A stretch of DNA of 48,115 nt, taken from Chiloscyllium plagiosum (taxonomy: Eukaryota). The position numbers and the translations under genes were made by a program. The stretch spans positions 5,667,728 through 5,715,842 of the forward strand of contig NC_057756.1 of assembly GCF_004010195.1 (NCBI RefSeq). The letters are read 5' to 3'. Position 1 is the first letter of the stretch. Every line of letters starts with the position of its first letter. Below are positions 322 through 43,668 of the stretch, one piece after another. The notes under the pieces are model-generated. The model was not told the origin of the DNA and did not search any database. It worked only from the letters and a program-made list of their open reading frames with translations.

Positions 322-603
322 ATGCACCAGAGGGTCTCACAATTACTTCCCTCAATGGGATGAAAGATTCATCAATCAATACAATCCAGGGGGAGTCTGC
401 AGTGATAATCTGCTCTGTCAGGAGTTACCCAGCTTCTAACCTGATGTGGAGACATCTTAATGCCATAATGACGAGAACAAGTTCCAGCAATGAGCTGTGG
501 TTGGTGATTCCTAATGTTACGTCCAGGGAGGCTGGAGACTATCAGTGTGTGGCAGAGAATGAACATGGAACAGTGGAAGGCTCCATAACTATTACTGTGG
601 AAT
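322..603 (+). CDS. Gene A, Ig C2-type exon (MAG domain 3/4-like)
   Basis: Acceptor tttgtttttag|AT and donor GAAT|gtgagt; 282 bp, phase 1-1. Encodes APEGLTITSLNGMKDSSINTIQGESAVIICSVRSYPASNLMW...LWLVIPNVTSREAGDYQCVAENEHGTVEGSITITVE, with Ig B-strand Cys, C-strand Trp and a GDYQC F-strand motif. Confidence 0.93.
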
Positions 604-944
604 GTGAGTGTACACAGACTTCAATCTCTCTGACACAGGTGGAGGGACAAGCGAAAACACACAAATACAGGGATGAAGGACACATTAAAGGACCCGACAT
701 CAATGTGCATGCACGCACACACACACCCACTCGTGCATAAACTGACATTCTGTCATGAATCTTATCCAATGTTTGCATTACTTTCATTATTTGGAAACAG
801 AGATCCATGGATATGGGTCAGTTCTCTGACGAGCTTGTTTATGTACAAAACCAGAATATCAATTTGCAATAGTGAGGTCACAGTGTTAATTCCAAGACAT
901 CATGTGACTGCAATTGATGGCCTGGAACTGCCGTTGTAGTGGTA

Positions 945-1231
945 GATTAGATTCCTGACAGTGTGGAAACAGGCCCTTCAGCCTAACAAGTCCACACCAA
1001 CCCTCCGCAGAGTAACCCACCCAGACCCATTTCTCTCTGAATAACGCACCTAACACTATGGGCAATTTAGCATGGTCAATTCACCTGGCCTGCACATCTT
1101 TGGACTGTGGGAGGAAACCAGAGCACCCAGAGGAAACCCACGCAGATACGGGGAGAATGTGCAAACTCCAGACAGACAGTCACCTGAGACTGGAATCGAA
1201 CCTGGGACCCTGGTGCTCCGAGGCACCGTGC
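945..1231 (-). mobile_element. HE1-like tRNA-derived V-SINE (duplicate at about 34003-34289)
   Basis: Reverse complement of ggttcgattcc...gtctggagtttgcacattctcccc...gggtttcctc...cccacagtccaaagatgtgcagg, with a CR1-type tail. Confidence 0.85.
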
Positions 1232-1994
1232 ATAAAATGGTTATATTGTTTAGTTTATAACAGGCAAGGTAAATATATCAAGGATCTCTGTTTAGTTTTG
1301 ACATCAGAGCAGAAACACAGCAGAGACACAGTAGAGTTGAATTCAGAAAGTTGAACAGCTTCTCCTGACAGCAGATCCAGTGCAAACAATCAGCTCAGCA
1401 GAAGGGGTTTCTAGTCTGTGAAGCTTTCTATCCAGGAGAGTTTGAGTAAAAAGCATCAAGTGTTTAGATTGAGCAGGTTCAGGCCTCCATAACTTTGAGA
1501 GACTTAAGGCCAGCAGACATGAGAAGGAATCATAGAATAAACACCAGACTTCAGAGTAAACAAATTCATAAACTAATGATTTAAAGAGCTGAAAGAGAAT
1601 GACATTTCTATGGAATTAGAGTCTCTGTAACGACAGTGTGATGAAACAGGTTGGAACTTTGTTTTGCTGATTATTTTAAGAGCTTCCTAACTGTTTTCTG
1701 TATAAATATAGCTTTCTTTGGCAGTAGACAGCTTGCGTATTGCTGGAAAAAAATCACATTTTGTTAAAGTCTTTCATCTTGCACTCATCAGGACAGTTTG
1801 CAAGAATGCAAATTCAAGTAGGAAACCAACTTTTATTGTGCATGAGAGGATTGGTTTGATGAATGGACTCTTAGTGATAGTGGTGTGACATGGAAGATTC
1901 AGAGTGTCATACATAAAGCATAGGAACAGACCCTATGGTCCAACCAATCCATGCTGACCATAATCCCAAACTGAACTATTTCACCTCGCTGAAC

Positions 1995-2470
1995 CCTCCC
2001 AAGCTGGAGAAGGTTCAGAAGAGATTTACCAGGATGTTGTGGGAATGGACAGTTTGAGTTATCAGCAGAGCTGGATAGGCTGGGACTTACTTCACTGGAG
2101 TGTAGGAGGTTGAGAAGTGACCTGACAGAGGTTTATAAAATCATGAGGGTAGAGATAAGGTGAGTGGCAAATGTCTTTTCCCCAGGGACGGGAATTTCAA
2201 GGCTGGGGGGCATGTTTTTAAGGTGAGAGGAGAAAGGTTTTAAAAAGACATTGGGGACAATTCCTTTACACTGAGAGTGGTTCATATGTGGAATGAACTT
2301 TGAGAGGAAGTGGTGGAGATGGGTATAACTGCAACATTGAAAAGACATTTGGATAAGCACATGAAGAAGAAATGTTTGGAGGGATATGGGTCAAGCGCAG
2401 GCAGATGGGACTCGTTTCGTTTGGGATTAAGGTCAGCATGGACTGGTCTGTTTCCATGCTGTATGACTCT
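1995..2470 (+). mobile_element. CR1-clade LINE 3' fragment (duplicate at about 35054-35530)
   Basis: Decayed RT C-terminal text (KLEKVQKRFTRML...LTEVYKIMR) and a gtttccatgctgtatgactcta tail. Confidence 0.85.
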
Positions 2471-3324
2471 ACAATGTGTCACTTTTTATTCTTTCTGCTA
2501 TAATCGACAATTTCACCCACTGTACCTAGTATGTTACACACTTCATCTATCTATACCCTTTGTAGGTTGTGTTTGTTTTCCTCAGAACTTACTTTCCTAC
2601 TTATCTTTGTATCAACAACAAATTTAGTTAATGTATGTTCAATTCCTTCATTCAAATAATTTCTAGAAATTGTGAACATTTGAGGACCCAGCACCAGTCC
2701 CTTGTGGCACACTGCTGGTGACAATCTGTGAAGAGAAAGTAGAGTTGAGGTTTCAGGTCTAGTAGCCCTTCATCAGAACTCTCTTTGTCTGTGTGAAATG
2801 CAGCGAGGTGTTGACCGACCAGGATAGCCATTCGCCTGCAGGATGGCCTAGATACATCCTTTTTCAGCATTAAACTTCTTTAATTAACATTACAGGAATT
2901 TTCATAATGTCTGATGGTCAGTTTAGCCTGAGGATCAACACACCTCAGGGAAGAGGAGAGGATGAGAAGGCTGCACTCTCACAGTAGGAGAAAGTGAGGA
3001 CTGCAGATGCTGGAGAGTTAGAGTCGAGAAGTGTGGAAGTGAAAAAGCACAACAGATCAGGCAGTATCTAAGGACCAGGAGAGACGACATAAGCCCAAAA
3101 TAAACTCAGTTGTTGTGGGAATTAAACCTGTGCTGTTGGTACATCACAGACCATGCATCCAGCTAACTGAGCTAACCAACCCCCAGCATCAACTGCAGTT
3201 CCTGTGAAAGTCTCGGCTCCTCAGACTTGTCCCCCTCTCTTGAGATGTGGTGACCTCACCACCAGGTTGTCTCTCTGTAATGAGATAGCAATCCTCCCAT
3301 CCTTTGAGTCAATGCTGACTTTAA

Positions 3325-3470
3325 CACTCACACACACACTCTCAAACACTCTCTCACACATTTCGCACACACATTCTCTCATGCACTCTCCCACACACCT
3401 GTTCTCACACACATACACTCTCCTACACACACACACACACTCTCTCTCATGCACACACACAGATGCCACA
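3325..3470 (+). repeat. Imperfect (CA)n/(CT)n microsatellite (duplicate at about 36489-36634)
   Basis: Direct inspection. Confidence 0.9.
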
Positions 3471-3732
3471 CAATGGAAGTTTACATAGTCTATGTCTACT
3501 GTAAATGTGACATTGCACCTTAGATTGAGGTGAAGGTGACAGAGATCCATTGAGACAGCAGGTTCAGAGAGATGAACAATGGAGTCTTCCTGTGCTGTGT
3601 GATTGCTCACAACATTTTCTTCCTTTGCTGAAGGTGACAGAGATCCATTGAGACAGCAGGTTCAGAGAGATGAACAATGGAGTCTTCCTGTGCTGTGTGA
3701 TTACTCACAACATTTTCTTCTTTTGCTCTTAG

Positions 3733-4014
3733 ATGCGCCAGAGAATCTCACAATTACTTCCCTTGATGGGATTAAAGATTCGTCAATCACTATAACTGAG
3801 GGAGACTCTGCACTGATAACCTGCTCTGTCAACAGCTTCCCAGCTTCAAACCTGACGTGGAAACATCTTGATGTCACAATGAACAGCACAAGTTCCCACA
3901 ATGAGCTGTGGATGGAGATTCCTCACGTTACTCCCCGAGACACTGGAGACTATCAGTGTGTGGCACAGAATGAACATGGGACAATGGAAGGCTCCTTATC
4001 CATCACAGTACAAT
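3733..4014 (+). CDS. Gene A, Ig C2-type exon (paralog of the 322-603 exon)
   Basis: ctcttag|AT ... CAAT|gtgaga; 282 bp, phase 1-1. APENLTITSLDGIKDSSITITEGDSALITCSVNSFPASNLTW...DTGDYQCVAQNEHGTMEGSLSITVQ. Confidence 0.93.
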
Positions 4015-4048
4015 GTGAGACTGCTGGTACATCTGTTCATTGTTACAA

Positions 4049-4702
4049 TATGTACGTAAGTTAGCTCATTGAGCTGGAAGGTTTGTTTTCAGATGTTTCA
4101 TCACCATGACTAGTTAATATCATCAGTGAGAGTCTCCGGTGCTGGTGGTATGGCCTCTCTTTATAGGTCTTGATTTCTTAAGATGGATGATGTCATTTCC
4201 GGTTCTTTTTTTCAAGGGAAGGTAGTTAGAATCTAAATTGATGTGGTTGTTGATGGAGTTCTGGCTGGAATGCCATGCCTCTAAGAATTCTCGTGCATGT
4301 CTTTGTTCCATCTGTCATAGATTGTGTGTTGTCCCAGTCAAAGTGGTGTCCTTCTTTGTCTGTATGTATGGAAACTAATGAGAGTGGGTCGTGTCTTTTG
4401 GTGACTAGTTGGTGTTCGTGTGTCCTTGTGCCAAGTTTCCTGCTTGTTTGTCCGATGTAGTGGTTTTGTTTTACAGTTCTTGCATGGTATTTTGTAAATG
4501 ACATTGGTTTTGTTGGTAGTAGCTAATGGATCCCAGACTATAAATAGAAAGTTGGAACATGCCACCACCACTTCATCAGACGCTCTCAATGATGATGTTT
4601 CCTAGTCATGGTGACAAAACATCTGGAAACAAATCTTTCAGCTCAGTGAGCTAACTTACATACATATTCTCAACCTGAGCTATAAATCTTCTCGAAAATC
4701 GC
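4049..4702 (-). mobile_element. Penelope-like element fragment (GIY-YIG endonuclease region) with inverted terminal segments
   Basis: Minus-strand frames give NVIYKIPCKNC...YIGQTSRKLGTRTHEHQ...HHFDWDN, frameshifted. Segments 4057-4130 and 4583-4658 are inverted copies. Confidence 0.85.
4089..4129 (-). ncRNA. Hammerhead-ribozyme-like motif of the Penelope fragment (degenerate)
   Basis: The minus strand reads tca-CTGATGA-tattaactagtcatggtgat-GAAAC-ATC-tga, with a 3-bp stem I and an imperfect stem II. Confidence 0.5.
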
Positions 4703-5574
4703 CAACTGTTACAATATCTTTAGATGAGTTCTTGGCATTGTCTTATTTCCTCTTTGGATTTCTTCAAGCTTCTCTCATCCTTTTCTATTTTTTCCACAAT
4801 TCCTCCAACAGTTGGGTCTGAGACAAGGGTCGTTCTTCATCGCTATGTCTGTATCTTCATGTCTGTGCTTATCTATCTCACTCTAACTGGACGTAACACC
4901 ACTTTTGGCTCCTGATCTTCCAGTCTTTATCGAAGCCACTCACTTGTCTTGCTCTCCACCAGCTGAATTCGAACGTCCTCGCTGATACCTGCATTTTAAA
5001 ATCTGTAACCCTCCTCTCTCCACTTTCTTCAGAATCCGATTCTCGTATCCATCGAGTATGACCCTCCGCATTAGTGACTGCTCCCGGTGTTTTATCAACC
5101 TCAGGCTGATGTTTTCAGATGTTGAGACTGAAATAACTGGCTACAGTGTTTGCTGCTGTTTTCCTAACCCACATTTCAGTCCTAGGTGTAACTTGGGTGT
5201 TTAACATAGACCCAAGTATTATCCACTCTCCTGACCTCAGTGCACCCAGTCTTGATATCCCCATTACTACTTAGCACCGTTCATTCATGTCCAGTTCATA
5301 TGTCTCTCTGTGCCTTTTGTCTTGGTCCATTGTATTCACCAGCTCCTCCTTTGTTCTGTTTGTGTGTGTGATATCATCTGCCAACCAGAGATTCGACAGC
5401 TACATCTCTACAAACAAATTAATATCCCCAAGAGACAGGCACGTGAATATGCTTAAAAACAGATACAAATGCTTCAAATGCCTTCCTCTTTTAATACACT
5501 CCTTATACTCACCCTCTGTGGACATGCTTTGGGTCAGTGGCTGAAGAGATCCTTGTCTGAAGCAGATGATAAAT

Positions 5575-7600
5575 AAGAAAACAAAGTCTAGGAGCAGAAA
5601 TAGCCCATTCAGACCATTGAGTCTGCTTCGCTACTCAGTGAGGTCATGGTTGATCTGAGGATGCTCCATTCCACTTTTCTGGCATAACCTTTGATTGCCT
5701 CACTAATTAAAATGCTGACTATCTGAATGTACTTAATGACCCTGTGGCAAAGAATTCCACAGATTCACTACCCAAGAGAGAAAAAATATCCTGCTCTTGT
5801 CTGTCCTAACTGGGGAGCTCCGTGCTCTAAAATTATGTCCCTCTGGTCCAAGGCACTCCCATGTGGGGAAACAAACTTCCCACATCTTTCCTGTCAAGTC
5901 CCCCTGGCCTCCTACATGTTTCAATAAGGTCGCCTCTCATTCTTTGAAACGCCAGTGTGTACATGCCCAACCTATTTAGCCTCTCCTCATAAAATAATCC
6001 CTCCACACCTGGGATCAGTTGAGTGAACCTTCTCTGGACTGTCCCCAGTATAGCTTTCCTTAGATAAGGCACCCCAACCTATTCACTATATTCCAGCTGT
6101 GATCTGATTCATCTGTTGTGAAGTTTAAGCAAAACCTCCTTAATTTTACACTCCATTCCCTTTAAAGTAAAGGACCATATTCCATTTGCCTTCCCTATTA
6201 TTTACTGAACTTGGATTTAGATTTTTTTGAGATGTATACCCAAGGACCAATTTATTACAAATCTAAATCCAAATCCACTGCCTCTCCTTTATCTATCCTG
6301 CTTGGTACTTCCTCAGAGAATTCTGAGATATTTGTTGGACATGATTTTCTCTTCCTCGGGCCATGTGGTCAGCATGGACAAGTTGGACCGAAGGGTCTGT
6401 TTCCATGCTGTACATCTCGATGATTCTATGACCCCCAAATCCCTCCATGTTGCAGCTTTCTGTGTTTTTTCTCCATTTAAATGGCACTGAGCTTCTCTAA
6501 TCTTGCTGCCAAAGTGCACAATCCCATACCTTCCCATATTATATTCCACCTGACATATTTTTGCCCACCAGTTTAGTCTGTCTGTATTCCTCTACAGGCT
6601 CTTTGTGCCATTCTCACCACGTGCCTGCCCACCTATCTTTACATCGCTTGCAAATTTGGTTACAGTGCCTTCACCATCGGTGGCTCAGTGGTTAGCACTG
6701 CTGCCTCACAGCACCAGTGATCCAGGTTCAATTCCCACCCCGGGTGACTGTGTGGAGTTTGTACATTCTCCCTGCCTCCACATGGGTTTATGGGTGGCAC
6801 GGTGGCACAGTGGTTAGCACTGCTGCCTCACAGTGCCAGGGACCCGAGTTCAATTCCCGTCTCAGGTGACTGACTGTGTGGAGTTTGCACATTCTCCCTG
6901 TGTCTGCGTGGGTTTCCTCTGGTTTCCTCCCACAGTCCAAAGATGTGCAGGTCAGGTGAATTGGCCATGCTAAATTGCCCAAAGTGTTAGGTGAAGGGAT
7001 AAATGTAGGGGGATGGGTCTGGGTGGGTTGCGCGTCGGTGTGTACTTGTTGGGCCGAAGGGCCTGTTTCCACACTGTAAGTAATCATCATCATCCGTATC
7101 ATTGACATTTATTGTAAATAATTGCACTCCAGTATTGATCCTTGTAGCATTTCACTTGTTACAGATTGCCAATCTGAAAATGCTTCCCCCGCCCCAGCCC
7201 CATCCTAACCCTCAGTTTTTTACGAGTTAACCAATCCTCTCTCTGTGTGAATTTCCAATCTCTAACACCATGGGCTCTTAATGACTTGAACCTTATCAAG
7301 CACCTTCTGAAAACCCAAATATTTTATATCCATTGCCTCTGCTTGATCTCTCCTGCTTGTTACCTCCACAAAGAATTCTGAGATATTGTTAGACATGATT
7401 TTCTCTCCCTTGGGCCATGATCAATCTGTTTGATCGTGTTTTGTATTTCTAAACACTGTGCCATTACAGCCTTTCAAATAGGCTCTAAAATGTTCCTAAT
7501 AACAAATGTTACCTCACTAGCTCACAGTTATCTGATTTTGGTCTCCTTCCCTTTTACAATAAAGATGTTACACTGGCAGTATTCCTAATGCCTGGAATTT
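5575..7600 (-). mobile_element. Decayed CR1-clade LINE fragments, interrupted by SINE and LINE-tail insertions
   Basis: ORF remnants LGTVQRRFTQLIPG...EERLNRLG...MRGDLIE and VVNLWNSLP. Confidence 0.8.
6678..7085 (+). mobile_element. HE1-like SINE with a duplicated head, nested in a minus-strand CR1 fragment
   Basis: The gtggttagcactgctgcctcacag A-box head occurs twice (about 6678 and 6792), followed by a full body and tail. Confidence 0.85.
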
Positions 7601-7764
7601 TTCCCAGAAAATGAGTAAGGGATTTCCAGAGCGTAGAGCTCCAGGCAGTTGAAGGTGGAGCAGTGGATATCAGGAAATACTCATGAGGCTGGAAGAGTGT
7701 GGAGATCTCAGAGGGTTACAGTCTGTGGGAATTACCTGCTGATTCTCCTCTCTTCTTTTTGCAG

Positions 7765-8040
7765 ATCCCCCACGGGAGACCACAGTGTCCATCAGTGGAG
7801 CACCAGGTGGGATCAGAGAGGGGCAGAATGTCACATTAACCTGCTCCAGTGAAAGTATCCCACCAATATCTCAGTACAGTTGGTTTAGGACTGAGGGAAC
7901 CACCAGCATCCAGTTAAACACAAGCAGCCAGATTCTCTCCTTCACTCCAGTCACACGAGGGAATATTGCAGGGTTCTACTGCACAGTGACAAACCCATTG
8001 GGTAGCAGCAGCTCCAACATGACTCACCTGAATGTGGAAT
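7765..8040 (+). CDS. Gene A, Ig C2-type exon (CD22/sialoadhesin-like repeat domain)
   Basis: ttttgcag|AT ... GAAT|gtaagc; 276 bp, phase 1-1. YPPRETTVSISGAPGGIREGQNVTLTCSSESIPPISQYSWFR...AGFYCTVTNPLGSSSSNMTHLNVE. Confidence 0.92.
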
Positions 8041-8310
8041 GTAAGCTTTTTACTGTCTGTCTGTCTCTCCTTAACAGTCAGGGATGGTCTGTCTGGCAGC
8101 AACTTACTCACTGTAGTTTAGATTACAGTAACCTCCTCACTGCTATAACCTGTCCTTCATTGAGATGCACAGAGTGATATCAGGATAGGCAACTAACAGC
8201 TCAAAGAGGGAGGTTTTTAAGCAGTATCTTAAATGAGGAGATAGAGACAGAGAGAACAGTGGAGAGGTTTAGAAGGGGAATACTCCAGCTAGGATGCACA
8301 GCAGCTGAAG

Positions 8311-8900
8311 GGTCAAGAGTGTGTTGCTGGGAAAGCACAGCAGGTCAGGCAGCATCCAAGGAGCAGGAGAATCGACGTTTCGGGCATAAGCCCTTCATCA
8401 GGAATTAGGCTTGTGGGCGGGGGCTGAGAGATAAAGGGGAGAGGGGTGGGTTGGGTAGATGAAAAAGCGATAGGTAGATGGAGGTGAGGGAGAAGGTGAT
8501 AGGTCAGAGGAGGGAATGATGGACAGGTCCAGAGGGCAGTGCTGAGTTGGAGGCTTAGGACTGGGATAATGTGGAGCAGGGGAAATGAGGAAGCTGTTGA
8601 TATCTACATTTATCCCGTTTCATTCTTCTCCAGGCGTCGGGTGGTAAAGGTTTGGCGGTGGAGAAGTCTTGACAGAGTTGGGAGGGAGAGAGATGAAGAG
8701 TTCAGCCATGGGGTTGGTGGGTGAGGGTGTCACAGAGATGTGCTCTGAAAGGATCTACAAGAGGGCCCCATTCCTGATGAAGGGCTTATGCCCGAAATGT
8801 CGATTCTCCTGCTCCTCGGATGCTGCCTGACCTGCTGTGCTTTCTCAGCAACACACACTCGACTCTGATCTCCAGCATCTGCCGTCCCACTTTCTCACAA
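8311..8900. mobile_element. Penelope-derived insertion with about 95-bp inverted repeats and a target-site duplication
   Basis: 8312-8405 is the reverse complement of about 8770-8865. It is flanked by the direct repeat cagctgaag (8302-8310 and 8901-8909). Confidence 0.75.
8374..8401 (-). ncRNA. Minimal hammerhead-ribozyme-like motif (PLE type)
   Basis: The minus strand reads CTGATGA-a-gggc-ttat-gccc-GAAAC-GTC: core boxes, stem II and a palindromic ACGT mini stem III. Stem I pairing is weak. Confidence 0.6.
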
Positions 8901-8989
8901 CAGCTGAAGACATGACTGCCAGTGACAGACGGATGGATATCAGAAGAGCCTTGAGAGATCAAAATTGTAGGAGGGTAGAGATAGCCAAG

Positions 8990-9190
8990 GGTTAATGGGA
9001 ACTGGAGGAGGTGACATAGGGAGAGATGTAGGGGCTGCAGGAGGTGACAGAGGGATGTAGGGGCTGGCGGAGGTTACAGAGATGGGGAGGGATTTAGGGG
9101 CTGGCGGAGGTTACAGAGATGGGGAGGGATGTAGGGGCTGGAGGAGATTACAGAGATGGGGAGGGATGTTGGGGCTGGAGGAGGTCACAC
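8990..9190 (+). repeat. About 39-bp G-rich minisatellite (taggggctggaggaggttacagagatggggagggatg-like); related arrays at about 37690-37830 and 46045-46190
   Basis: Tandem units visible at all three sites. Confidence 0.8.
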
Positions 9191-9370
9191 TTAGAGTGAG
9201 GTTTTGGTCAGTTGAGATAAGGGGGTAATGGTTGAATGATTGGCCAGGACAGCATTGCGATGCTCGAAAATTGGGGAATTTGTGACTGTTGGCGAGAGTT
9301 TAGGTGTTACTGTTCTATCTTCCATTCTAACTCTGCTAGTCTTGACTACTTGCTGTCCTTCCCACCTCAG

Positions 9371-9664
9371 ATAAGCCAGAAATTTCTCGAGAGTCAAAAT
9401 GTGCAGAGGGGGCAGCGGGGATCACCTGCGTCTGTGCGGCCAACTCCAACCCTCCGGCAGTTATCACCTGGCACCTGCCCCATGCCAACCTCAGCGGTAA
9501 CCAAACACATGGAGGGTTTGTGTCTGAGCAGCTCCAAGAGGGGCATCTGGTGAAGGGGTTCCTGATCCTGACGGGACACCAGAATGAAGAGGAAGTGGTG
9601 GTATCCTGCTCAGTTCGAAACCCCCACGGAGCATCCTTGTTCAAGGCTTACCAGTGGCTCCAAG
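9371..9664 (+). CDS. Gene A, membrane-proximal Ig exon (MAG domain 5 / Siglec last-domain type)
   Basis: cctcag|AT ... CAAG|gtggga; 294 bp, phase 1-1. YKPEISRESKCAEGAAGITCVCAANSNPPAVITWHLPHANLSGNQT...VSCSVRNPHGASLFKAYQWLQG. The S-x-C...CxC...SNP four-Cys pattern is typical of MAG D5. Confidence 0.92.
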
Positions 9665-13965: not shown

Positions 13966-14062
13966 GTAGAAATTCCAATAAATGGACATTGGGATTAGTC
14001 GTGGCTGGAGTCGTATTGAGTGTTTTCCTGGCTGGAATCTTAATTTTCCTGTGCGTGCGAAA
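13966..14062 (+). CDS. Gene A, transmembrane exon (uncharged TM)
   Basis: ttttacag|GT ... CGAAA|gtaagt; 97 bp, phase 1-2. GRNSNKWTLGLVVAGVVLSVFLAGILIFLCVRK. Not in the ORF track; read manually. Confidence 0.92.
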
Positions 14063-14349: not shown

Positions 14350-14431
14350 GAGAAAGCCAACGACTGAGGAGGCACCTTCAAAGACCAATGACATTGCAAT
14401 GATCTACAGTCAAATCTCTGTGAAGCACAAG
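14350..14431 (+). CDS. Gene A, first cytoplasmic exon with ITIM-like MIYSQI
   Basis: attgcag|G ... AAG|gtacag; 82 bp, phase 2-0, compatible with both neighbours. RKPTTEEAPSKTNDIAMIYSQISVKHK. Confidence 0.88.
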
Positions 14432-14524
14432 GTACAGAGGGTGTTTGCACTCATACCAAACCATCAATCTCAGCATGTCCCAGACAAACAGTTAACCATT
14501 GATTCTCACCTATGGAGTCAACAT

Positions 14525-15535
14525 GAGCTGAGCCAATCGAGCTCTCTCTCTGAAACAGCAGGTTGTAGTCTCAACATCACACAGCTGAAGGCTTGAACCG
14601 TACATCAGGTCTGCACAATCGAAGTGTCAGCACTGAGGGAGCACCACACTGTCAGAGGGTCAGTGCTGAGGGAGTGGGCACTGTCGGAGGGTCAGTGAAG
14701 AGGGAGTGTCGCACTGTCAGAGGGTCAGTGCTGATGGAGTGGGCACTGTCGGAGGGTCAGTGCTGAGGGAGCACCCACTGTCGGAGGGTCAGTGCTGAGG
14801 GCGTGCCGCACTGTCAGAGAGTCAGTGCTGAGTGAGTGCTGCACTGTCGGAGGATCAGTGCTGATGGAGTGGGCACTGTCGGAGGGTCAGTGCTGAGGGA
14901 ACGCCGCACTGTCGGAGGGTCAGTGCTGAGGGAGTGGGTCAGTGCTGAGGGAGTGCCGCACTGTCGGAGGGTCAGTGCTGAGGGAGCGCCACTGTCGGAG
15001 GGCCAGTGCTGAGGGAGCAGGCGCACGTTCAGAGTATCAGTGCTACAGGAGTGGACATGGTAAGAGGGTCAGCCCTGAGGGAGCACCAGCTGTTGGAGGG
15101 TCAGTGCTCAGGGAGAGCCACACTGTCGGAGGGTCAGCGCTGAGGGAGTGGGCACTGTCGCAGGGTCACTGCTGAGGGAGCACAGCACTGTCAGAAGGTC
15201 AGTGCTGAGGAAGTGGGCCTTGTCGGAGGGTCAGTTTTATTCTGCCCTTCAGATGAGTCGTTAAACTGACAAGAGTTGCCTCTCAGGCAGGTGTAAAAGA
15301 ATCCATGGCCACTCTTAGGAATTAAAGCTGTGATGGTCTCTCGCTGGTGTCCTGAACCTCTGGCTAAATTTTTGAACGAAATAATCTGGTTTAGTGACCC
15401 TTTACTGTTTGCAAGAGATTGTCATGTGCTAGATTTTGTACATTAGAACTGTGGTGGCACTTTAAGTAAAATATCTTTCAATTGGCTGTGAAGTGTCAAG
15501 GCTTATGTTTCAGTCTCAGAACTATGAAAGACAAG
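14525..15535 (+). mobile_element. Old DeuSINE-like element (SacSINE1/AmnSINE-type) with an internal 31/33-bp minisatellite expansion at about 14626-15235
   Basis: A degenerate tRNA-like head precedes the array. After it, cttcagatgagtcgttaaac...ggtgtaaaagaatccatggc...ttcaattggctgtgaag follows the Deu-domain/3' tail order as I recall it; not aligned computationally. Confidence 0.65.
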
Positions 15536-15632
15536 GTGACACCAACTGAACCATGACTTACTCTTTCGAGGCTGTGCAGTAATTTAAACCCTTTCCTGCC
15601 AATAAATGAAATCTGTTCCCATTTCTCTGCAG

Positions 15633-15899
15633 GGTTCACGGAACAGGGTACTCACTCACCCTCAGATTCCAACCAGGGACACAGCTGGAGAGACACGACA
15701 AGCTCGCCAGGATGTCTTTGAAGGTCCAGTGGGAGAAGCTGCTACACACCCTGATGGAACTGAGGACATTGTCTATGCCAATGCCAACTTGTCAAAGCTG
15801 CCCTGCGGTGACGGGACCATACAGAGGGGCGAGGAAACAGAATATGCAGAGATCAGATTCCAGCCCCAAACTGAGGGAAAAACAGGGAGGAAGGTGTGA
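15633..15899 (+). CDS. Gene A, terminal cytoplasmic exon with degenerate ITIM (IVYANA) and ITSM (TEYAEI)
   Basis: tttctctgcag|GGT, phase 0, open to TGA at 15897-15899. ...EDIVYANANLSKLP...EETEYAEIRFQ... resembles the C-termini of CD33-related Siglecs and L-MAG (EYAEIR). Confidence 0.92.
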   Translation, partial: GSRNRVLTHPQIPTRDTAGETRQARQDVFEGPVGEAATHPDGTEDIVYANANLSKLPCGDGTIQRGEETEYAEIRFQPQTEGKTGRKV

Positions 15900-26873: not shown

Positions 26874-27167
26874 ATTTTACAGATAAACCCACAATATTCC
26901 CCGTGCAAATTATTGCAGGAAAGCATGTGAGATTAAGGTGCACTTTCAACACAACATGCAGTGGAACAGCACCCACCCTAACCTGGGACACTCCTACCAT
27001 CGTACGTGGATCAGTCTCAAACACTACAACTCAGCATGGTGTCACTCTGACTTATACTTCAGTTCTGAGCCTGACACCATCACTCAGACACCAGGGACAA
27101 ACTCTAACCTGCAGAATGAGTTATTCAAACATTTCATCAGAGCAGACCTTCGTACTGACAGTGCAAT
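26874..27167 (+). CDS. Gene B, Siglec domain-2-type Ig exon, copy 1
   Basis: ctgttag|AT ... CAAT|gtaagt; 294 bp, phase 1-1. DFTDKPTIFPVQIIAGKHVRLRCTFNTTCSGTAPTLTW...TSVLSLTPSLRHQGQTLTCRMSY. It has the C-x5-C...P..xW pattern with the extra inter-domain Cys typical of Siglec D2. Confidence 0.88.
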
Positions 27168-29444: not shown

Positions 29445-32400
29445 AGGTTTTATCATGATTCCTAGTCCAGTGGCATTACCACAACAATGTCACCTCTTAA
29501 TGAACTGAGCCCCCAATGGACTTACTTTGTCCACCCATGTTAGCAACTTCCATTAATCTCTTTATTCTGAAGTTGAAGATATCAATAAGTGTTACTACAG
29601 TGTGTCGTCAGAAATCTTCATTCAGAGTGTGATTAACTGGACATATCTTAATACCTTGAACTGTTTGAAAGCAGAGGGGACTGACTACAGCAGCACAAAA
29701 GGCTACAGTTGCAAAGAGAACATAAGCTGCTTAGCCAACTCGGTGAGTCTGAAACACTTTCACAGAGAGGTCACATGACAGTTTTTGGGTGTAAAATAGG
29801 CCTTGAATTTAGAAAATCCCACTACAGAAGTAGCCTTTGTGTGCACTCTCTTTCTTCTGAAAGTCCTTTCATCATAGAGATCTCGGAGAGACTTATAAAA
29901 TTCTAACAGGACTACATAGGTTCGATACAGGGAGGATGTTCCCAATGGTGGGTGTGTCCAGAGCCCGGGGGGTGGGGGTGGAGTCACAGTTTGAGGATTC
30001 AGGATGGGCCATTTAGGATGGAGATGCAGAGACATGTCTTCACCCAGAGAGTGGGAGCCTGTGGGATTCATTACCACGGGAAGGAACTGATGCCAGAACA
30101 TTGAATTTATTCAGGAGGTGGCTGGATATAACATTGGGGGCGAATGGGGTCAAAGGTTATGGGGAGAAGGCTATTGAGTTGGACGATTAGCCATGATGGT
30201 GATGAATGGTGGAGCAGGATCGAAGGGCTGAATGGCCTCCTCCTGCTCCTATCTTCTGTGTTTCTATGGTTCTGTAGTTTGTCATGTGAAAGAACATTGG
30301 GAAGCCTCATCAGCACGTGTGCGTAGTTCTTAAATGAGAAGTTGGAAATGTAAGGGATCACATATTTTTACTTTTTGAATGATAATCTGAAATGGAAGTT
30401 AGACACTGCTATGTCGCTGAGAGACCAGGAGGGTTTTACAACTTGGATAAATTAAATGGGGCACATGTTTAGCTGTGCAAGTCGCTTTTGGAACCAGTGT
30501 CAGCAATACTTAGAGTTAAGGAAAGACTTCCGGACGATAGTCCTTGGATGGGTTGAGCTGCAGTTTGCTACAAATCTGCAGGTGCTGGGTAGCCAGAGAC
30601 ATCCAGACTCTGCAAATTGTAAACAGCCCTCTCTCCCCTGTCCTCTCTCCATGTGATTGAAAAGACAAGAAAACAAGATTAAAAGAAACATTCTAATAAG
30701 AAAGAACCAGGTCCATTGAATCAGCTGTCGAAGTGAAGAATGACCATCATTGCTCAGCCAAAAGAGACTGTGAGAGACAATTTAACCCAGACTTGTGATC
30801 TGGAGTTCTGATTTCCAGAATTTTCTTCCCTGTCTGATTTCGTTTACCACCCAATATATCTGTGCCAGACTATCTGGCTTGCCTTAATCATGAATAAGAT
30901 TGTGTCTGTTTGTCCAAGGTGAATCGTAGTTGATTATAGATATTTTTTTCCCTACTCCTGTTTAAGGTAGAGTATGTAATAAATAAAAGGAGTTATTTTC
31001 TGTTAATGACAGAACTTGGTGTGAATTGTATTTGTCCTCAGCTGTCAGTGAGGCAAATTGGTGCTCAAATTGGGAATTTATACATTTGGTGATGGCTTGT
31101 AGAATACTGGAATCTGAATATTGGTGCACTTTTCCCAGTTAAGTTATGATAGAAACTACACTGTTGTTTCCAGAAAACCATTCCTCAAGCAGTTATAACT
31201 GATCCACAAACACATCCCAGTGTAAGCTGATTGTGTGGAAAGCAACACTGGCTACAGATCAACACTTGGGACAATCTATGACTAACTGCATTTTGCAAAC
31301 ATAGCTGTACATAACCAAGATATTTCGAAGGTAAAACTTTGCAGAGAACGTGTGTGAGTGTGTGATTTCGTTACAATTAAGGAGCATAGTTGTGTATATT
31401 TGCACATTTTAAGCTTTCTGTTAACATCATTTGATCTTTGGTTGTGTAAAATTCTTTGCAATAACTTGGTTAATTTAAGGAACCTGGAGCACTTGATTTT
31501 GATATTGATCTTTATGCAGTTTGATGATACATACAATATCTTCTGGTGAATTAAGCTCAAATCATATGGCCAGAGAAGGGGTGCAGCAAGGAAATGAAGC
31601 AGTTCATCATGTTGAACAGGGTTATAATGTAAAAGAAAGACTTGCATTTCAAGAACACCTTTCACCAGCTCAGAATGCCTCAAATTGAATCAAAGGCAAT
31701 GAAACAGTAATTTAATTTTTGTGCCACTGTACTACACGAAACATAGAGCATATTTGAGAAAAGCAAGCTGTGAAACACAGGAATGAAATATCTCAGACTG
31801 TGATAAACCAGTGAACATTAAGCTCTGGTCAGCTCCTCCATCTTCATCCAGGGTCAGCAATCCCCTGTCTTGGAATGAAAGTGTTTTAAGTTGAGGAACA
31901 GATACACTGCCTAAAAGGATGACATTATTTTCAGATCATTGTAAACTCTCATATCTAATGTCATCATTATAAACTTGCTTTCATTTGTGGGACTGTGATT
32001 TCTATTTCAGCAGCTGCTTCACGTTATAGTTACTGAAAATATATTTATCCTCTCACTGTCTGTTAGATTTTACAGATAAACCCACAATATTCCCCGTGCA
32101 AATTATTGCAGGAAAGCATGTGAGATTAAGGTGCACTTTCAACACAACATGCAGTGGAACAGCACCCACCCTAACCTGGGACACTCCTACCATCGTACGT
32201 GGATCAGTCTCAAACACTACAACTCAGCATGGTGTCACTCTGACTTATACTTCAGTTCTGAGCCTGACACCATCACTCAGACACCAGGGACAAACTCTAA
32301 CCTGCAGAGTGAGTTATTCAACCGTTTCATCAGAGCAGACCTTCGTACTGACAGTGCAATGTAAGTATCGACGCAGCACTCCCTCAGCACTGGCCTTCCG

Positions 32401-32746: not shown

Positions 32747-33198
32747 NNNNNNNNNNNNNNNNNNNNNNNNNNNNNNNNNNNNNNNNNNNNNNNNNNNNNN
32801 NNNNNNNNNNNNNNNNNNNNNNNNNNNNNNNNNNNNNNNNNNNNNNNNNNNNNNNNNNNNNNNNNNNNNNNNNNNNNNNNNNNNNNNNNNNNNNNNNNNN
32901 NNNNNNNNNNNNNNNNNNNNNNNNNNNNNNNNNNNNNNNNNNNNNNNNNNNNNNNNNNNNNNNNNNNNNNNNGCACTCCCTCAGCACTGACCCTCCGATA
33001 GTGCGGCACTCCCCCAGCACTGACCCTCTGACTGTGCGGCACTCCCTCAGCACTGACCCTCCGACAGTGCGGCACTCCCCCAGCACTGACCCTCTGACTG
33101 TGCGGCACTCCCTCAGCACTGACCCTCCGACAGTGCGGCACTCCCCCAGCACTGACCCTCTGACTGTGCAGCCGAACCTCAGCACTGTCCCTCTGAGA
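32374..33198 (+). repeat. 31/33-bp minisatellite array filling most of the intron between D2 copy 2 and the next exon
   Basis: Tandem units with a gap at 32747-32971. Confidence 0.93.
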
Positions 33199-33392
33199 CC
33201 ATTGGGCTTTCTCCATAATGACCCTATGAGTTTGCTGTAACCCCTCGTATTGAACTATAGTGTCTGCCTGGATGACGTACTTTGTGTCAAAAGAACCCGG
33301 ATTGATATTATACCTTTTACAATCTCTGGGTCTTCAATCGAGTCTTGCTCTGTCCTGGGATTGCTCACAATATTCTCTTCCTTTGTTTTTAG

Positions 33393-33661
33393 ATGCACCA
33401 GAGGGTCTCACAATTACTTCCCTCAATAGGATGAAAGATTCATCAATCAATACAAGCCAGGGGGAGTCTGCTCTGTCAGGAGTTACCCAGCTTCTAACCT
33501 GATGTGGAGACATCTTAATGCCATAATGACGAGAACAAGTTCCAGCAATGAGCTGTGGTTGGTGATTCCTAATGTTACGTCCAGGGAGGCTGGAGACTAT
33601 CAGTGTGTGGCAGAGAATGAACATGGAACAGTGGAAGGCTCCATAACTATTACTGTGGAAT
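33393..33661 (+). pseudogene. Gene B, frameshifted copy of the 322-603 Ig exon
   Basis: Splice sites intact, but 269 bp rather than 282 bp. The 13 bases agtgataatctgc, including the B-strand Cys codon region, are missing at 33471/33472, giving TGA at 33500-33502. Confidence 0.85.
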
Positions 33662-36600
33662 GTGAGTGTACACAGACTTCAATCTCTCTGACACAGGTGG
33701 AGGGACAAGCGAAAACACACAAATACAGGGATGAAGGACACATTAAAGGACCCGACATCAATGTGCATGCACGCACACACACACCCACTCGTGCATAAAC
33801 TGACATTCTGTCATGAATCTTGTCCAATGTTTGCATTACTTTCATTATTTGGAAACAGAGATCCATGGATATGGGTCAGTTCTCTGACGAGCTTGTTTAT
33901 GTACAAAACCAGAATATCAATTTGCAATAGTGAGGTCACAGTGTTAATTCCAAGACATCATGTGACTGCAATTGATGGCCTGGAACTGCCGTGGTAGTGG
34001 TAGATTAGATTCCCGACAGTGTGGAAACAGGCCCTTCAGCCTAACAAGTCCACACCAACCCTCCGCAGAGTAACCCACCCAGACCCATTTCTCTCTGAAT
34101 AACGCACCTAACACTATGGGCAATTTAGCATGGTCAATTCACCTGGCCTGCACATCTTTGGACTGTGGGAGGAAACCAGAGCACCCAGAGGAAACCCACG
34201 CAGATACGGGGAGAATGTGCAAACTCCAGACAGACAGTCACCTGAGACTGGAATCGAACCTGGGACCCTGGTGCTCCGAGGCACCGTGCATAAAATGGTT
34301 ATATTGTTTAGTTTATAACAGGCAAGGTAAATATATCAAGGCTCTCTGTTTAGTTTTGACATCAGAGCAGAAACACAGCAGAGACACAGTAGAGTTGAAT
34401 TCAGAAAGTTGAACAGCTTCTCCTGACAGCAGATCCAGTGCAAACAATCAGCTCAGCAGAAGGGGTTTCTAGTCTGTGAAGCTTTCTATCCAGGAGAGTT
34501 TGAGTAAAAAGCATCAAGTGTTTAGATTGAGCAGGTTCAGGCCTCCATAACTTTGAGAGACTTAAGGCCAGCAGACATGAGAAGGAATCATAGAATAAAC
34601 ACCAGACTTCAGAGTAAACAAATTCATAAACTAATGATTTAAAGAGCTGAAAGAGAATGACATTTCTATGGAATTAGAGTCTCTGTAACGACAGTGTGAT
34701 GAAACAGGTTGGAACTTTGTTTTGCTGATTATTTTAAGAGCTTCCTAACTGTTTTCTGTATAAATATAGCTTTCTTTGGCAGTAGACAGCTTGCGTATTG
34801 CTGGAAAAAAAATCACATTTTGTTAAAGTCTTTCATCTTGCACTCATCAGGACAGTTTGCAAGAATGCAAATTCAAGTAGGAAACCAACTTTTATTGTGC
34901 ATGAGAGGATTGGTTTGATGAATGGACTCTTAGTGATAGTGGTGTGACATGGAAGATTCAGAGTGTCATACATAAAGCATAGGAACAGACCCTATGGTCC
35001 AACCAATCCATGCTGACCATAATCCCAAACTGAACTATTTCACCTCGCTGAACCCTCCCAAGCTGGAGAAGGTTCAGAAGAGATTTACCAGGATGTTGTG
35101 GGAATGGACAGTTTGAGTTATCAGCAGAGCTGGATAGGCTGGGACTTACTTCACTGGAGTGTAGGAGGTTGAGAAGTGACCTGACAGAGGTTTATAAAAT
35201 CATGAGGGTAGAGATAAGGTGAGTGGCAAATGTCTTTTCCCCAGGGAGGGGAATTTCAAGGCTGGGGGGCATGTTTTTAAGATGAGAGGAGAAAGGTTTT
35301 AAAAAGACATTGGGGACAATTCCTTTACACTGAGAGTGGTTCATATGTGGAATGAACTTTGAGAGGAAGTGGTGGAGATGGGTATAACTGCAACATTGAA
35401 AAGACATTTGGATAAGCACATGAAGAAGAAATGTTTGGAGGGATATGGGTCAAGCGCAGGCAGATGGGACTCGTTTCGTTTGGGATTAAGGTCAGCATGG
35501 ACTGGTCTGTTTCCATGCTGTATGACTCTACAATGTGTCACTTTTTATTCTTTCTGCTATAATCGATAATTTCACCCACTGTACCTAGTATGTTACTCAC
35601 TTCATCTATCTATACCCTTTGTAGGTTGTGTTTGTTTTCCTCAGAACTTACTTTCCTACTTATCTTTGTGTCCAGAACAAATTTAGTTACTGTATATTCA
35701 ATTCCTTCATTCAAATCATTTCTAGAAATTGTGAACATTTGAGGACCCAGCACCAGTCCCTTGTGGCACACTGCTGGTGACAATCTGTGAAGAGAAAGTA
35801 GAGTTGAGGTTTCAGGTCTAGTAGCCCTTCATCAGAACTCTCTTTGTCTGTGTGAAATGCAGCGAGGTGTTGACCGACCAGGATAGCCATTCGCCTGCAG
35901 GATGGCCTAGATACATCCTTTTTCAGCATTAAACTTCTTTAATTAACATTACAGGAATTTTCATAATGTCTGATGGTCAGTTTAGCCTGAGGATCAACAC
36001 ACCTCAGGGAAGAGGAGAGGATGAGAAGGCTGCACTCTCACAGTAGGAGAAAGTGAGGACTGCAGATGCTGGAGAGTTAGAGTCGAGAAGTGTGGAAGTG
36101 AAAAAGCCTCAGGGAAGAGGAGAGGATGAGAAGGCTGCACTCTCACAGTAGGAGAAAGTGAGGACTGCAGATGCTGGAGAGTTAGAGTCGAGAAGTGTGG
36201 AAGTGAAAAAGCACAACAGATCAGGCAGTATCTAAGGACCAGGAGAGACGACATAAGCCCAAAATAAACTCAGTTGTTGTGGGAATTAAACCTGTGCTGT
36301 TGGTACATCACAGACCATGCATCCAGCTAACTGAGCTAACCAACCCCCAGCATCAACTGCAGTTCCTGTGAAAGTCTCGGCTCCTCAGACTTGTCCCCCT
36401 CTCTTGAGATGTGGTGACCTCACCACCAGGTTGTCTCTCTGTAATGAGATAGCAATCCTCCCATCCTTTGAGTCAATGCTGACTTTAACACTCACACACA
36501 CACTCTCAAACACTCTCTCACACATTTCGCACACACATTCTCTCATGCACTCTCCCACACACCTGTTCTCACACACATACACTCTCCTACACACACACAC

Positions 36601-36798
36601 ACACTCTCTCTCATGCACACACACAGATGCCACACAATGGAAGTTTACATAGTCTATGTCTACTGTAAATGTGACATTGCACCTTAGATTGAGATGAAGG
36701 TGACAGAGATCCATTGAGACAGCAGGTTCAGAGAGATGAACAATGGAGTCTTCCTGTGCTGTGTGATTACTCACAACATTTTCTTCCTTTGCTCTTAG

Positions 36799-36856
36799 AT
36801 GCGCCAGAGAATCTCACAATTACTTCCCTTGATGGGATTAAAGATTCGTCAATCAC
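36799..36856 (+). CDS. Gene B, 5' part of an Ig exon (copy of 3733-4014), cut by an assembly gap
   Basis: ctcttag|ATGCGCCAGAGAATCTC... matches 3733-3790 up to the N-run. Confidence 0.8.
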
Positions 36857-38299: not shown

Positions 38300-38602
38300 G
38301 GGGCGGCACGATGGCTCAGTGGTTAGCACTGCTGCCTCACAACACCAGGGACCTGGGTTTGATTCCAGCCTTGGGTGACTATCTGTGTGGAGCTTTCACA
38401 TTCTCCCTGTGTCTGTGTCTGGGTGCTCCAGTTTCCTCTCACAGTCTAATATATGCAGGTCAGGTGAATTGGTCATGCTAAATTGCCAATAGTATTAGGT
38501 GCATTAGGGTAGGGGAATGGGTCTGGGTGGGTTACACTTCGGAGGGTCGGCGGTGGACTTGTTCGGCCGAAGGGCCTGTTTCCACACTGTTGGGAATCTA
38601 AT
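38300..38602 (+). mobile_element. HE1-like SINE ending about 40 bp upstream of the Arg-TM exon acceptor
   Basis: gggcggcacgatggctcagtggttagcactgctgcc head through the gggcctgtttccacactg tail. Confidence 0.85.
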
Positions 38603-38641
38603 CAGACAGGAAGTGATTAATCCTTTCTCTGTGTTTTCTAG

Positions 38642-38769
38642 GTAGCAGAGGAGAGAGTCTGCATGTGATCCTGATCCTGGGAATACGAGCTGGGATATTC
38701 ATTGTAGCTGTTGTTCTCACTGTTGCTGCTGTTTGTGTCTGTGAGGGGCAAACTGTCAAAGGAAGCTGA
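38642..38769 (+). CDS. Terminal TM exon with intramembrane Arg and short tail (activating-receptor type), probably gene B
   Basis: Pyrimidine tract tcctttctctgtgttttctag|GT, phase 1. GSRGESLHVILILGIRAGIFIVAVVLTVAAVCVCEGQTVKGS*, with Arg codon CGA at 38686-38688 and TGA at 38767-38769. Not in the ORF track. Confidence 0.75.
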
Positions 38770-40299
38770 AAGGCAGCTTCAAGCTTTATCAGTGCAACTG
38801 AATCCCATGGGATGTTGGGTTAGGTTGTACTGAGTCCAGTTAAGGGCACTGGTTCGGATCGTCTGAGAACCATAGAATTCTCAGGTAGCCATTCAGTCCA
38901 TTGAGCTATGCCAGCTGTCTCTGTACAGTTATGCAGTCAGTGCCATTTCCCCACTCTCTCCACATTGTTCTGAGAGTTTATTTCCCACAAATATTCATCC
39001 AAATTCTGTTTGAAATCAGTGAGCATCTTCCCTTCCACCCCACCTTGTAGGCAGTGAGATCCAGATCATTATCACTCACAGTGTATAACAGTCCTTCCTC
39101 ACAACCCCTGCTCTGCCTATCCCACCCTGAATCTTCAATATGTCTCCCCTTGTCCTTGTATCATCAGCAATGGGAACAGCTTTCCTTTGTCTCCCTGATC
39201 TAAACCTGGCCCCATCTCTTCCTCATCAGTCAGATTCACCCCCAGTCACCATCGCTCTGAGAAGAACAGCCCCAGCTTCCCCAAATGAACCCTGTCACTG
39301 AAATCCCTGCTTGCATTTGGGTCAATCTCCTCTGTACTCTGTTGGGGACACTCACCTCTTTCCCCCTTAAAGACCCGCACATCCTTCCCCCCACAGAGGA
39401 CCCTCACATGCTTCCCCGTTGAAGAGCCTGGCATCCTTTCTGAAGTTCACTGACCAGAACTGGACACAGTATTCTCTTTGTAAATGTTCAGTACAGTTTC
39501 CTTGCCTTTGTCCGTGATCCTGATGAAGGGCTTATGCCTGAAACGTCAATTCTCCTGCTCCTCGGTTGCTGCCTGACCTGCTGTGCTTTTCCAGTACCAC
39601 ACTCTCAAGTCTGATCTCAGCATCTGCAGTNNNNNNNNNNNNNNNNNNNNNNNNNNNNNNNNNNNNNNNNNNNNNNNNNNNNNNNNNNNNNNNNNNNNNN
39701 NNNNNNNNNNNNNNNNNNNNNNNNNNNNNNNNNNNNNNNNNNNNNNNNNNNNNNNNNNNNNNNNNNNNNNNNNNNNNNNNNNNNNNNNNNNNNNNNNNNN
39801 NNNNNNNNNNNNNNNNNNNNNNNNNNNNNNNNNNNNNNNNNNNNNNNNNNNNNNNNNNNNNNNNNNNNNNNNNNNNNNNNNNNNNNNNNNNNNNNNNNNN
39901 NNNNNNNNNNNNNNNNNNNNNNNNNNNNNNNNNNNNNNNNNNNNNNNNNNNNNNNNNNNNNNNNNNNNNNNNNNNNNNNNNNNNNNNNNNNNNNNNNNNN
40001 NNNNNNNNNNNNNNNNNNNNNNNNNNNNNNNNNNNNNNNNNNNNNNNNNNNNNNNNNNNNNNNNNNNNNNNNNNNNNNNNNNNNNNNNNNNNNNNNNNNN
40101 NNNNNNNNNNNNNNNNNNNNNNNNNNNNNNAGCGTGTTGCCTCCCTGCTCCCACATTCAATGATATCACAGGACAATCCTTCTGGGTGAGTGAGAACTAT
40201 GGTTTAAATTGGTACGATCAAAATGGGTAGGAAGGGCAGGTGCTCCTTGGAAACCTGGTGACCAACAGACCAAATGACAGAAGGAACGTTTAGAGACAA

Positions 40300-40775
40300 C
40301 AGAGTAATAGAAACAGACCCTTCGGTCCAACCCGTCCATGCCGACCAGATATCCCAACCCAATCTAGTCCCACCTGCCAGCACCCGGCCCATATCCCTCC
40401 AAACCCTTCCTATTCATATACCCATCCAGATTCCTCTTAAATGTTGCAATTGTACCAGCCTCCACCACATCCTCTGGCAGCTCATTCCATACACGTACCA
40501 CCCTCTGGGTGAAAAAGTTGTCCCATCCTTGTAAATCTTTTCTGAACCCTTTCAAGTTTCACAACATCTTTCCGATAGGAAGGAGACCAGAATTTCACGC
40601 AATATTCCAACAGTGGCCTAACTAATGTCCTGTACAGCCGCAAAATGACCTCACAACTCCTGCACTCAACACTCTGACCAATAAAGGAAAGCATACCAAA
40701 CGCCTTCTTCACTATCCTATCGACCTGGGACTCCACTTTCAAGGAGCTATGAACCTGCACTCCAAGGTCCCTTTG
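40300..40775 (-). mobile_element. CR1-clade LINE 3' fragment with an internal deletion
   Basis: QRDLGVQVHSSLKVESQVDRIVKKAFGML...LYRTLVRPLLEYCVKFWSPSYRKD. Confidence 0.88.
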
Positions 40776-43365: not shown

Positions 43366-43668
43366 GGGCGGCACGGTGGCTCAGTGGTTAGCTCTGCTAT
43401 CTCACAGCACCAGGGACCCAGGTTCGATTCCAGCCTCGGGTGACTGTCTGTGTGGAGTTTACACATTCTCCCCGTGTCTGCGTGGGTTTGCTCCAGGTGC
43501 CCCGGTTTCCTCCCACAGTCCAAAGATGTGCAGGCCATGCTAAATTGCCCATTGAGTTAGGTGCATTAGTCAGAGGGAAATGGGTCTGGGTGGGTTACTC
43601 TTCGGAGGGTCAGTATGGACTTGTTGGGCTGAAGGGCCTGTTTTCATATGGTAGGGAATCTAATCTAA
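43366..43668 (+). mobile_element. HE1-like SINE
   Basis: Full head, body and aatctaatctaa tail. Confidence 0.85.

Follow-up and report, generated by a model that had tools for sequence, protein, structure and literature searches.

Paired activating and inhibitory Siglecs have been described from mammals, and the logic by which a basic transmembrane (TM) residue goes together with a short tail is textbook knowledge. In a paired receptor of the activating kind, the cytoplasmic tail is short and a basic residue of the TM segment recruits DAP12, CD3-zeta, FcR-gamma or DAP10 (PMC13358205). In the primate pairs Siglec-5/14 and Siglec-11/16, inhibitory and activating neighbours have near-identical ectodomains, the activator carries a basic TM residue and a short tail, gene conversion operates, null alleles of the activator are frequent, and the sialic-acid Arg has been lost in some lineages (PMC6288428, PMC5701461, PMC13358205). 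Siglec-15 is an ancient activating Siglec that also has a basic TM residue, and fish genomes have been stated, for teleosts, to be without inhibitory CD33-related Siglecs (PMC7226832). In cartilaginous fish, multigene activating and inhibitory Ig receptors are known as the MDIRs of the clearnose skate (PMC3031540), which have CD300/TREM/pIgR-like ectodomains, unlike the receptors considered here. Our search of the openly accessible literature yielded no account of the exon described below, of shark activating Siglecs or of shark paired Siglec-like genes.

The window, that is, the whole 48,115-nucleotide stretch of Chiloscyllium plagiosum DNA analysed here, holds a cluster of Siglec-like Ig genes on the plus strand, with Pfam Ig or C2-set matches in nine of the 14 frames tested. 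The original prediction had picked out in it an exon for a TM helix with an intramembrane Arg and no signalling tail, and had assigned this exon to an adaptor-coupled activating receptor. New beyond that are the likely pairing with an upstream gene (gene A), the apparent reuse of the exon across families, and a 13-bp frameshift in the third Ig exon (D3) of the gene to which the exon likely belongs (gene B).

By analogy, the design appears to resemble that of Siglec-14/-16 beside Siglec-5/-11, combined with a CD89-type placement of the Arg. Like CD89, NKp46 and NKp30, the shark exon has a short tail and appears to have its Arg in the upper helix, and in 13 of 33 copies a polar residue at position -5 relative to the Arg (Gln in 12, His in one), about one turn above it, recalls the polar residues of CD89. 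In contrast to the primate pairs, the shark TM exon has no detectable relation to solved TM segments, the geometry of its Arg would point to FcR-gamma or CD3-zeta rather than to DAP12, and the exon is also found on non-Siglec ectodomains. It differs from CD89-type receptors in its ectodomain family, with no sequence similarity shown, in an adaptor binding that is predicted, and in an Arg that would lie one or two residues deeper than in CD89. Whereas the TM residue of Siglec-15 is a Lys conserved from fish to mammals, the shark exon is multi-copy, and a profile of it matched no protein named Siglec-15, and none named MDIR, among the 17 and nine matches described below.

The transmembrane exon and its conservation

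Judged by its sequence, the TM exon is a real, conserved exon of the activating type. The predicted phase-1 acceptor and the TM frame with its intramembrane Arg were confirmed by sequence, by hydropathy and by a control over all comparable acceptors. The pyrimidine tract before the exon reads cctttctctgtgttttctAG, and the exon translates in phase 1 as SRGESLHVILILGIRAGIFIVAVVLTVAAVCVCEGQTVKGS, followed by a TGA stop at 38767-38769. Its hydrophobic stretch comprises 26 residues including the Arg, and its best 21-residue Kyte-Doolittle mean is 2.72. Among 319 pyrimidine-rich YAG acceptors on both strands, the one at 38642 was alone in opening a phase-1 frame with a 21-residue mean of at least 2.3, under a filter strict enough for gene A's own TM exon to escape it. 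AlphaFold2, given a seven-row alignment, returned a single helix over residues 2-39 (mean pLDDT 86), which tells little beyond helicity. No Pfam family covers the exon, a protein atlas search gave no usable match for it, and a profile search of the PDB gave one match, a designed peptide at E 0.71, which we take as chance. A canonical polyA signal (AATAAA or ATTAAA) is absent from 38770-39630, where AATGAA at 39284 is the sole variant. The features of the window are collected in Table 1.

Table 1. Features of the Siglec-like cluster, in window coordinates.
Feature	Position	Strand	Basis and remarks
Gene A Ig exons D3 (322-603), D4 (3733-4014), D5 (7765-8040), D6 (9371-9664)	322..9664	+	Pfam; NCBI model P0032; likely inhibitory partner
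Gene A uncharged TM exon	13966..14062	+	
Gene A cytoplasmic exons (14350-14431, 15633-15899) with Tyr motifs MIYSQI, IVYANA, TEYAEI	14350..15899	+	
Gene B C2-set Ig exon D2, copy 1	26874..27167	+	Pfam C2-set_2; 87/97 to C. punctatum P0007
Gene B C2-set Ig exon D2, copy 2	32067..32360	+	Pfam C2-set_2; 94/97 to copy 1
Block near-identical to window 1-3790, which covers gene A D3, the intron and the beginning of D4	33072..36856	+	3679 bases aligned, with 24 mismatches and 4 indels
Gene B Ig exon D3, 269 nt, 13 bases lost after 33466 relative to gene A, with frameshift and stop	33393..33661	+	Comparison with gene A
Gene B Ig exon D4, start only; remainder inside the 660-N gap 36857-37516	36799..36856	+	Sequence
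Pyrimidine tract and AG acceptor of the TM exon (phase 1)	38622..38641	+	Sequence; AG at 38640-38641
TM exon: short stalk, then the Arg-bearing hydrophobic helix, a tail of 8 residues and TGA	38642..38769	+	Sequence, homology; one continuous helix in AlphaFold2
Intramembrane Arg codon CGA	38686..38688	+	Sequence; Arg in 33/33 carriers
Possible internal donor gtgagg (TCT|gtgagg, GT at 38741)	38741..38746	+	Sequence; used by P0009, without conservation

The exon was carried by 33 of the 164 proteins retrieved, from seven named sharks of three orders plus two further records (C. punctatum 9, C. plagiosum 1, Hemiscyllium 2, Rhincodon 1, S. torazame 3, S. canicula 3, Carcharodon 12, other 2). All comparison proteins are automatic gene models, the carrier set was enlarged with members from cluster look-ups, and it includes isoforms and two assemblies, so the 33 are not independent loci. 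Used alone as a query, the exon matched nine proteins among 55 candidates; its seven-row profile matched 17 among 7,999 proteins and nine among 1.84 billion cluster representatives, and no ray or chimaera protein was matched in these exon searches. The copy in the window is 93-98% identical, over its full length, to other carpet-shark copies.

The Arg, on whose conservation the original prediction had been made to depend, was found in 32 of the 32 carriers matched by a profile in which its position was left free, and also in the 33rd, P0163. Fourteen columns are invariant among 17 distinct versions of the exon, a set that excludes P0009 and P0163, and these columns include I-4, L-3, G-2, I-1, R, A+1, I+3, F+4 and T+11. 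Two of them, T+11 and E+19, are not universal, since P0163 has Ile and Lys there, respectively. Together with I-4 and F+4, T+11 maps onto the Arg face of the helix. The claim that there is no signalling tail held as well: behind +18, the tail has 4, 5, 8 or 12 residues and no Tyr in 32 of 33 carriers, lengths that rest on gene models, the one exception being P0009, which is spliced on from the internal donor. In a tree of the exon, rows clustered by shark lineage and not by ectodomain class, and given that only one of its 14 inner branches was well supported, we did not use it as proof.

Two further observations concern the exon and its surroundings. All 17 distinct versions have a Cys at +16 (38732-38740), close to the helix's cytosolic end, which would be a candidate palmitoylation site. 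A SINE-like repeat at 38301-38603 stops 38 bases before the acceptor and has relatives at 12843-13159, ahead of the gene A TM exon, and at 43363-43667; we speculate that these could serve ectopic recombination.

The exon had been taken for unannotated, and here the original prediction needs correction: it is already part of an NCBI model for the same locus, XP_043539248.1 (P0009, labelled Chiloscyllium plagiosum), three of whose four segments, the TM exon among them, match exons of the window at 100%. This model begins behind the D3 frameshift, takes the donor at 38741 to splice 38740 to 43971, and runs on into Ig exons at 43971 and 46400. Given that two Ig domains would then sit in the cytosol and that a 500-N gap is crossed, we read P0009 as a chimera of two genes. 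The Ig exons in question are those of a third gene (43971-44264, D2-like, 78/97 to gene B D2; 46400-46693, D6-like, 69% to gene A D6), which has no V exon ahead and no TM exon inside the window, and which P0009 apparently fuses wrongly to the TM exon. As for the internal donor itself, suggested earlier as the source of an alternative tail, the gtgagg motif is present and P0009 uses it, but such a tail is not conserved: the Trp found at +18 in 19 of 33 carriers, encoded only by TGG, removes the GT, and the short tail is thus likely the true end.

The likeness once seen between the openings of this exon and the gene A TM exon (G-R/G-S) turned out to be an artefact. With a T as the last base of the upstream Ig exons, the codon at the junction (T+GT) specifies Cys and not Gly; the P0009 junction reads ...ITVE-C-SRGE, and BLASTP aligns no part of the two TM exons at E <= 100. 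Kinship with the gene A TM exon was rejected, and no uncharged TM among 132 proteins beat E 1.

Gene A, gene B and their probable pairing

Comparison with other sharks makes it likely that the TM exon is the last exon of gene B, a Siglec-like partner of the upstream inhibitory gene A. The exon sits on a 2.1-kb piece flanked by the 660-N gap and a 500-N gap, and the junction from the fourth Ig exon (D4) to the TM exon appears in the models P0007 (C. punctatum), P0001 (H. ocellatum) and P0058 (S. torazame); these models from three other species support the link between D4 and the TM exon in gene B. The domain order of P0007 is V-D2-D3-D4-D3-D4-exon.

Gene B would likely be the activating twin of the ITIM-type gene A. 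The two are linked, gene A has Tyr motifs, and their ectodomains are near-identical, a likeness that within the window may be a haplotype artefact; paired activating receptors are classically laid out in this way, with an ectodomain near-identical to that of an ITIM-type neighbour (PMC13358205). In C. punctatum, the activating-type P0007 and the inhibitory P0018, both listed on a contig of 76,745,996 bases, have V domains identical at 112 of 118 residues. The inhibitory orthologues P0018 and P0032 are identical at 103 of 118 residues in V, 87 of 91 in D5 and 92 of 97 in D6. At the protein level, informative sites group by species in V (7:0:0) and in D3 (5:0:0), the D3 test relying on the gene B of the window, which is possibly an assembly copy of gene A. 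D4 has no conversion signal, P0007 being identical to P0018 and to P0032 alike at 88 of 93 residues, and the signal in D2 is weak (92/98 vs 90/97).

One of the seven informative V sites is the Arg of the YxFR motif, the V-set essential Arg of Siglecs (PMC13358205). This position is Lys in both C. punctatum genes, P0007 and P0018, and Arg in the other two species; P0032, P0017 and the majority of the Carcharodon and Scyliorhinus carriers have Arg there. The V domain of the Siglec V-then-C2 layout is present in P0007 and in the Carcharodon and Scyliorhinus carriers, and among solved structures P0007 is closest to MAG (E 1.5e-40), Siglec-8 and CD33. A tblastn search of the window with five V-bearing queries (E <= 10) found no leader or V exon. 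Gene B, with no V exon in view and with Lys for the essential Arg in its closest orthologue, P0007, is a candidate member of the Siglec family proper.

Several rearrangements were seen around these genes. Regions 24377-27553 and 29801-32746 form a local duplication, with blocks identical at 96% and 87%, that carries two D2 exons. The gene A model P0032 is without D2 and reads through the intron, which, with two D2 copies near gene B, hints at misassembly. A 98-bp tandem duplication at 3531-3727, just ahead of gene A D4, copies the acceptor region; gene B is single-copy there and instead has a 105-bp duplication at 36002-36212.

Owing to the 13-bp deletion, D3 of gene B hits a stop after 35 codons, and the copy in the assembly may be a null allele or pseudogene, or may be rescued by skipping of D3, a phase 1-1 exon whose skipping would keep the frame. 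That the copy is null has, in our view, close to an even chance of being right, and at the level of the family it would be compatible with an activating receptor. A precedent is the human SIGLEC16P, the majority allele of its gene, in which 4 bp are deleted (PMC5701461); activating Siglecs commonly have null alleles (PMC5701461, PMC6288428), and the absence of leader and V exons from the window fits as well. Apart from the skippable D3, what speaks for a functional copy is the TM exon, intact and as close to other carpet-shark copies as noted above. Moreover, leader and V exons could hide in the 500-N gap at 20727-21226, and the 13-bp deletion could be an assembly error.

Placement of the arginine and the predicted adaptor

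The basic residue of the TM helix, a single one in the AlphaFold2 model, is Arg in 33 of 33 carriers. The polar residues at -5 and the Trp at +18, which is followed by a charged residue, bracket a span of about -4 to +18, in which the Arg would be about the fifth of 23 residues; this would favour FcR-gamma or CD3-zeta. By hydropathy windows, the Arg ranks 1-2 in 19-mers and 6-8 in 21-25-mers, and it is eighth in the best 21-mer. Given that such scans place it anywhere from first to eighth, depth alone is indecisive. In CD89, an Arg near the top of the TM binds FcR-gamma, and a one-turn downward shift is tolerated; NKp30 and NKp46 are assumed to bind the adaptor as CD89 does, and adaptors with DxxxT/S take a central Lys, with the exception of NKG2D and DAP10, where the residue is a central Arg (PMC13107469). 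Instead of the central Lys that marks a partner of the DAP12 type (KDD/DxxxT), all 33 carriers have an Arg in the upper half of the helix.

On balance, we think it somewhat more likely than not that the TM exon, with its conserved Arg helix and Tyr-free tail, ends a Siglec-like gene that forms a pair with gene A, and that the product is an activating receptor, predicted to act by pairing its Arg with the two Asp residues of an ITAM adaptor, for which FcR-gamma or CD3-zeta would be the likeliest candidates. D4 would be spliced to the TM exon, as in the models of three other species, and the membrane span would extend from Ile-4 to +18. The receptor would be assembled in the ER with a dimeric adaptor, the Arg lying against the adaptor's aspartate pair, and would be transported to the surface only as a receptor-adaptor complex, where ligand binding would lead to Syk-family signalling. 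Gene conversion would hold the ectodomain matched to that of the inhibitory partner, and we propose that a microbe engaging the gene A product would thereby also trip the gene B product.

The same activating receptor could instead have DAP12 as its partner, as in activating mammalian Siglecs (PMC6288428, PMC8198044), or DAP10, which we consider rather unlikely. The TM residue of Siglec-14 is itself an Arg, an exception to the central-Lys rule for DAP12 partners. For Siglec-14, -15 and -16, use of DAP12 through a basic TM residue has been reported (PMC6288428, PMC7226832), NKG2D pairs a central Arg with DAP10 (PMC13107469), and an Arg that is eighth in the best 21-residue window would lie nearer the middle. 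However, the polar -5 (13/33) and Trp +18 would set the Arg within the upper fifth, a central Lys is otherwise the rule for DxxxT/S adaptors (PMC13107469), and the residue at i+4 is Phe instead of the expected Ser or Thr. Our search found no paper showing FCER1G, TYROBP or HCST in sharks, and look-ups of such terms in three shark papers (PMC8455134, PMC6795676, PMC7677710) turned up Siglecs once, in passing, and DAP12, DAP10 or FcR not at all.

Charged TM segments of other kinds were also encountered among the proteins compared. A second, unrelated Arg-bearing TM occurs, with longer tails, on Siglec-like proteins of a stingray (Hypanus sabinus models P0073, P0133, P0134 and P0136); it is unmatched by the exon profile, P0073 is without YxxL, and it is possibly an independent activating solution in rays. 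Nine of 132 proteins (P0015, P0021, P0022, P0046, P0052, P0054, P0074, P0086 and P0093) have an acidic residue in the TM core (Asp in three, Glu in six) together with long tails, mostly with Tyr motifs.

Assembly of the locus and apparent reuse of the exon

We judge it improbable that the link between the TM exon and D2-D4 is an artefact of assembly, in which 33072-36856 would represent gene A's second haplotype, joined across the gap by scaffolding to the TM exon of another gene, or that 38741 is spliced to the downstream Ig exons as in P0009. The divergence of 0.65% fits alleles, P0032 is without D2 while two D2 copies lie near gene B, and N gaps lie on both sides of the TM exon; the NCBI model, for its part, joins 38740 to 43971. 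Yet D4 followed by the TM exon is modelled in three other species, and the splice of P0009 would place two Ig domains in the cytosol and depend on a donor lost in 19 of 33 carriers. That the hydrophobic stretch serves as the signal for a GPI anchor, or simply as the membrane anchor, of a non-signalling decoy, with the Arg snorkelling at the membrane surface, is very improbable: it would suit the S-G-G or S-R-G, short spacer, hydrophobic segment and 4-12 residue tail, the 18-residue hydrophobic run behind the Arg and a cytosolic flank that opens with Glu instead of the usual basic cluster, but the tail is polar and reaches a length of 12 residues, and a GPI signal needs far less constraint than 14 invariant columns, which here surround the Arg in three shark orders.

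In carpet sharks, the TM exon also closes models named CD22-like, CEACAM5-like or sialoadhesin-like by NCBI. Hemiscyllium P0001 and P0003 are identical at 40 of 40 residues in the exon and at 21 of 78 in the adjoining Ig domain, and C. punctatum P0007 and P0002 at 38 of 40 and 21 of 76, respectively (BLASTP, 26% over 88 residues). The CD22-like junction to the TM exon is modelled in two species, and such junctions may be chimeric predictions within a tandem cluster. In Carcharodon and Scyliorhinus, the exon is mostly found behind a D2-type domain in short CD33-like V-C2 proteins. The profile search of cluster representatives also brought up a diverged version in two proteins (E 7e-9 and 3e-7); SLAM, Ly-9 and CD48 are the atlas clusters nearest to their ectodomain (scores 0.95-0.96). 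A PDB search of P0163 placed CEACAMs first and CD2 tenth of 11, and the label SLAM-like is best taken as a lead. In the S. torazame model P0019, at least five tandem V-set domains, five of them with the YxFR Arg, precede the TM exon; P0019 may sense sialic acid multivalently, or it may be a fused model.

Overall, the exon likely turns Siglec-like receptors, and in gene models CD22- and SLAM-like ones, into activating receptors via predicted adaptor binding. More tentatively, with a chance that we would put somewhat below even, a single portable Arg-TM exon may have been copied onto Siglec-, CD22- and SLAM-like ectodomains, yielding FcR-gamma-coupled activators out of receptors, inhibitory or adhesive, from unrelated Ig families, with gene conversion keeping each matched to its inhibitory twin, down to the joint loss of the sialic-acid Arg, in parallel to primate Siglec-5/14.

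If true, a converted shark pair with a likely null activator would mean that the same pathogen counter-trap design exists in the oldest jawed-vertebrate lineage, whether ancestral or independently invented. Reuse of the TM exon across families, if true, would offer a concrete route for the repeated origin of activating receptors, and the shark receptors that bear the exon would provide a short list for asking which ITAM adaptor came first.
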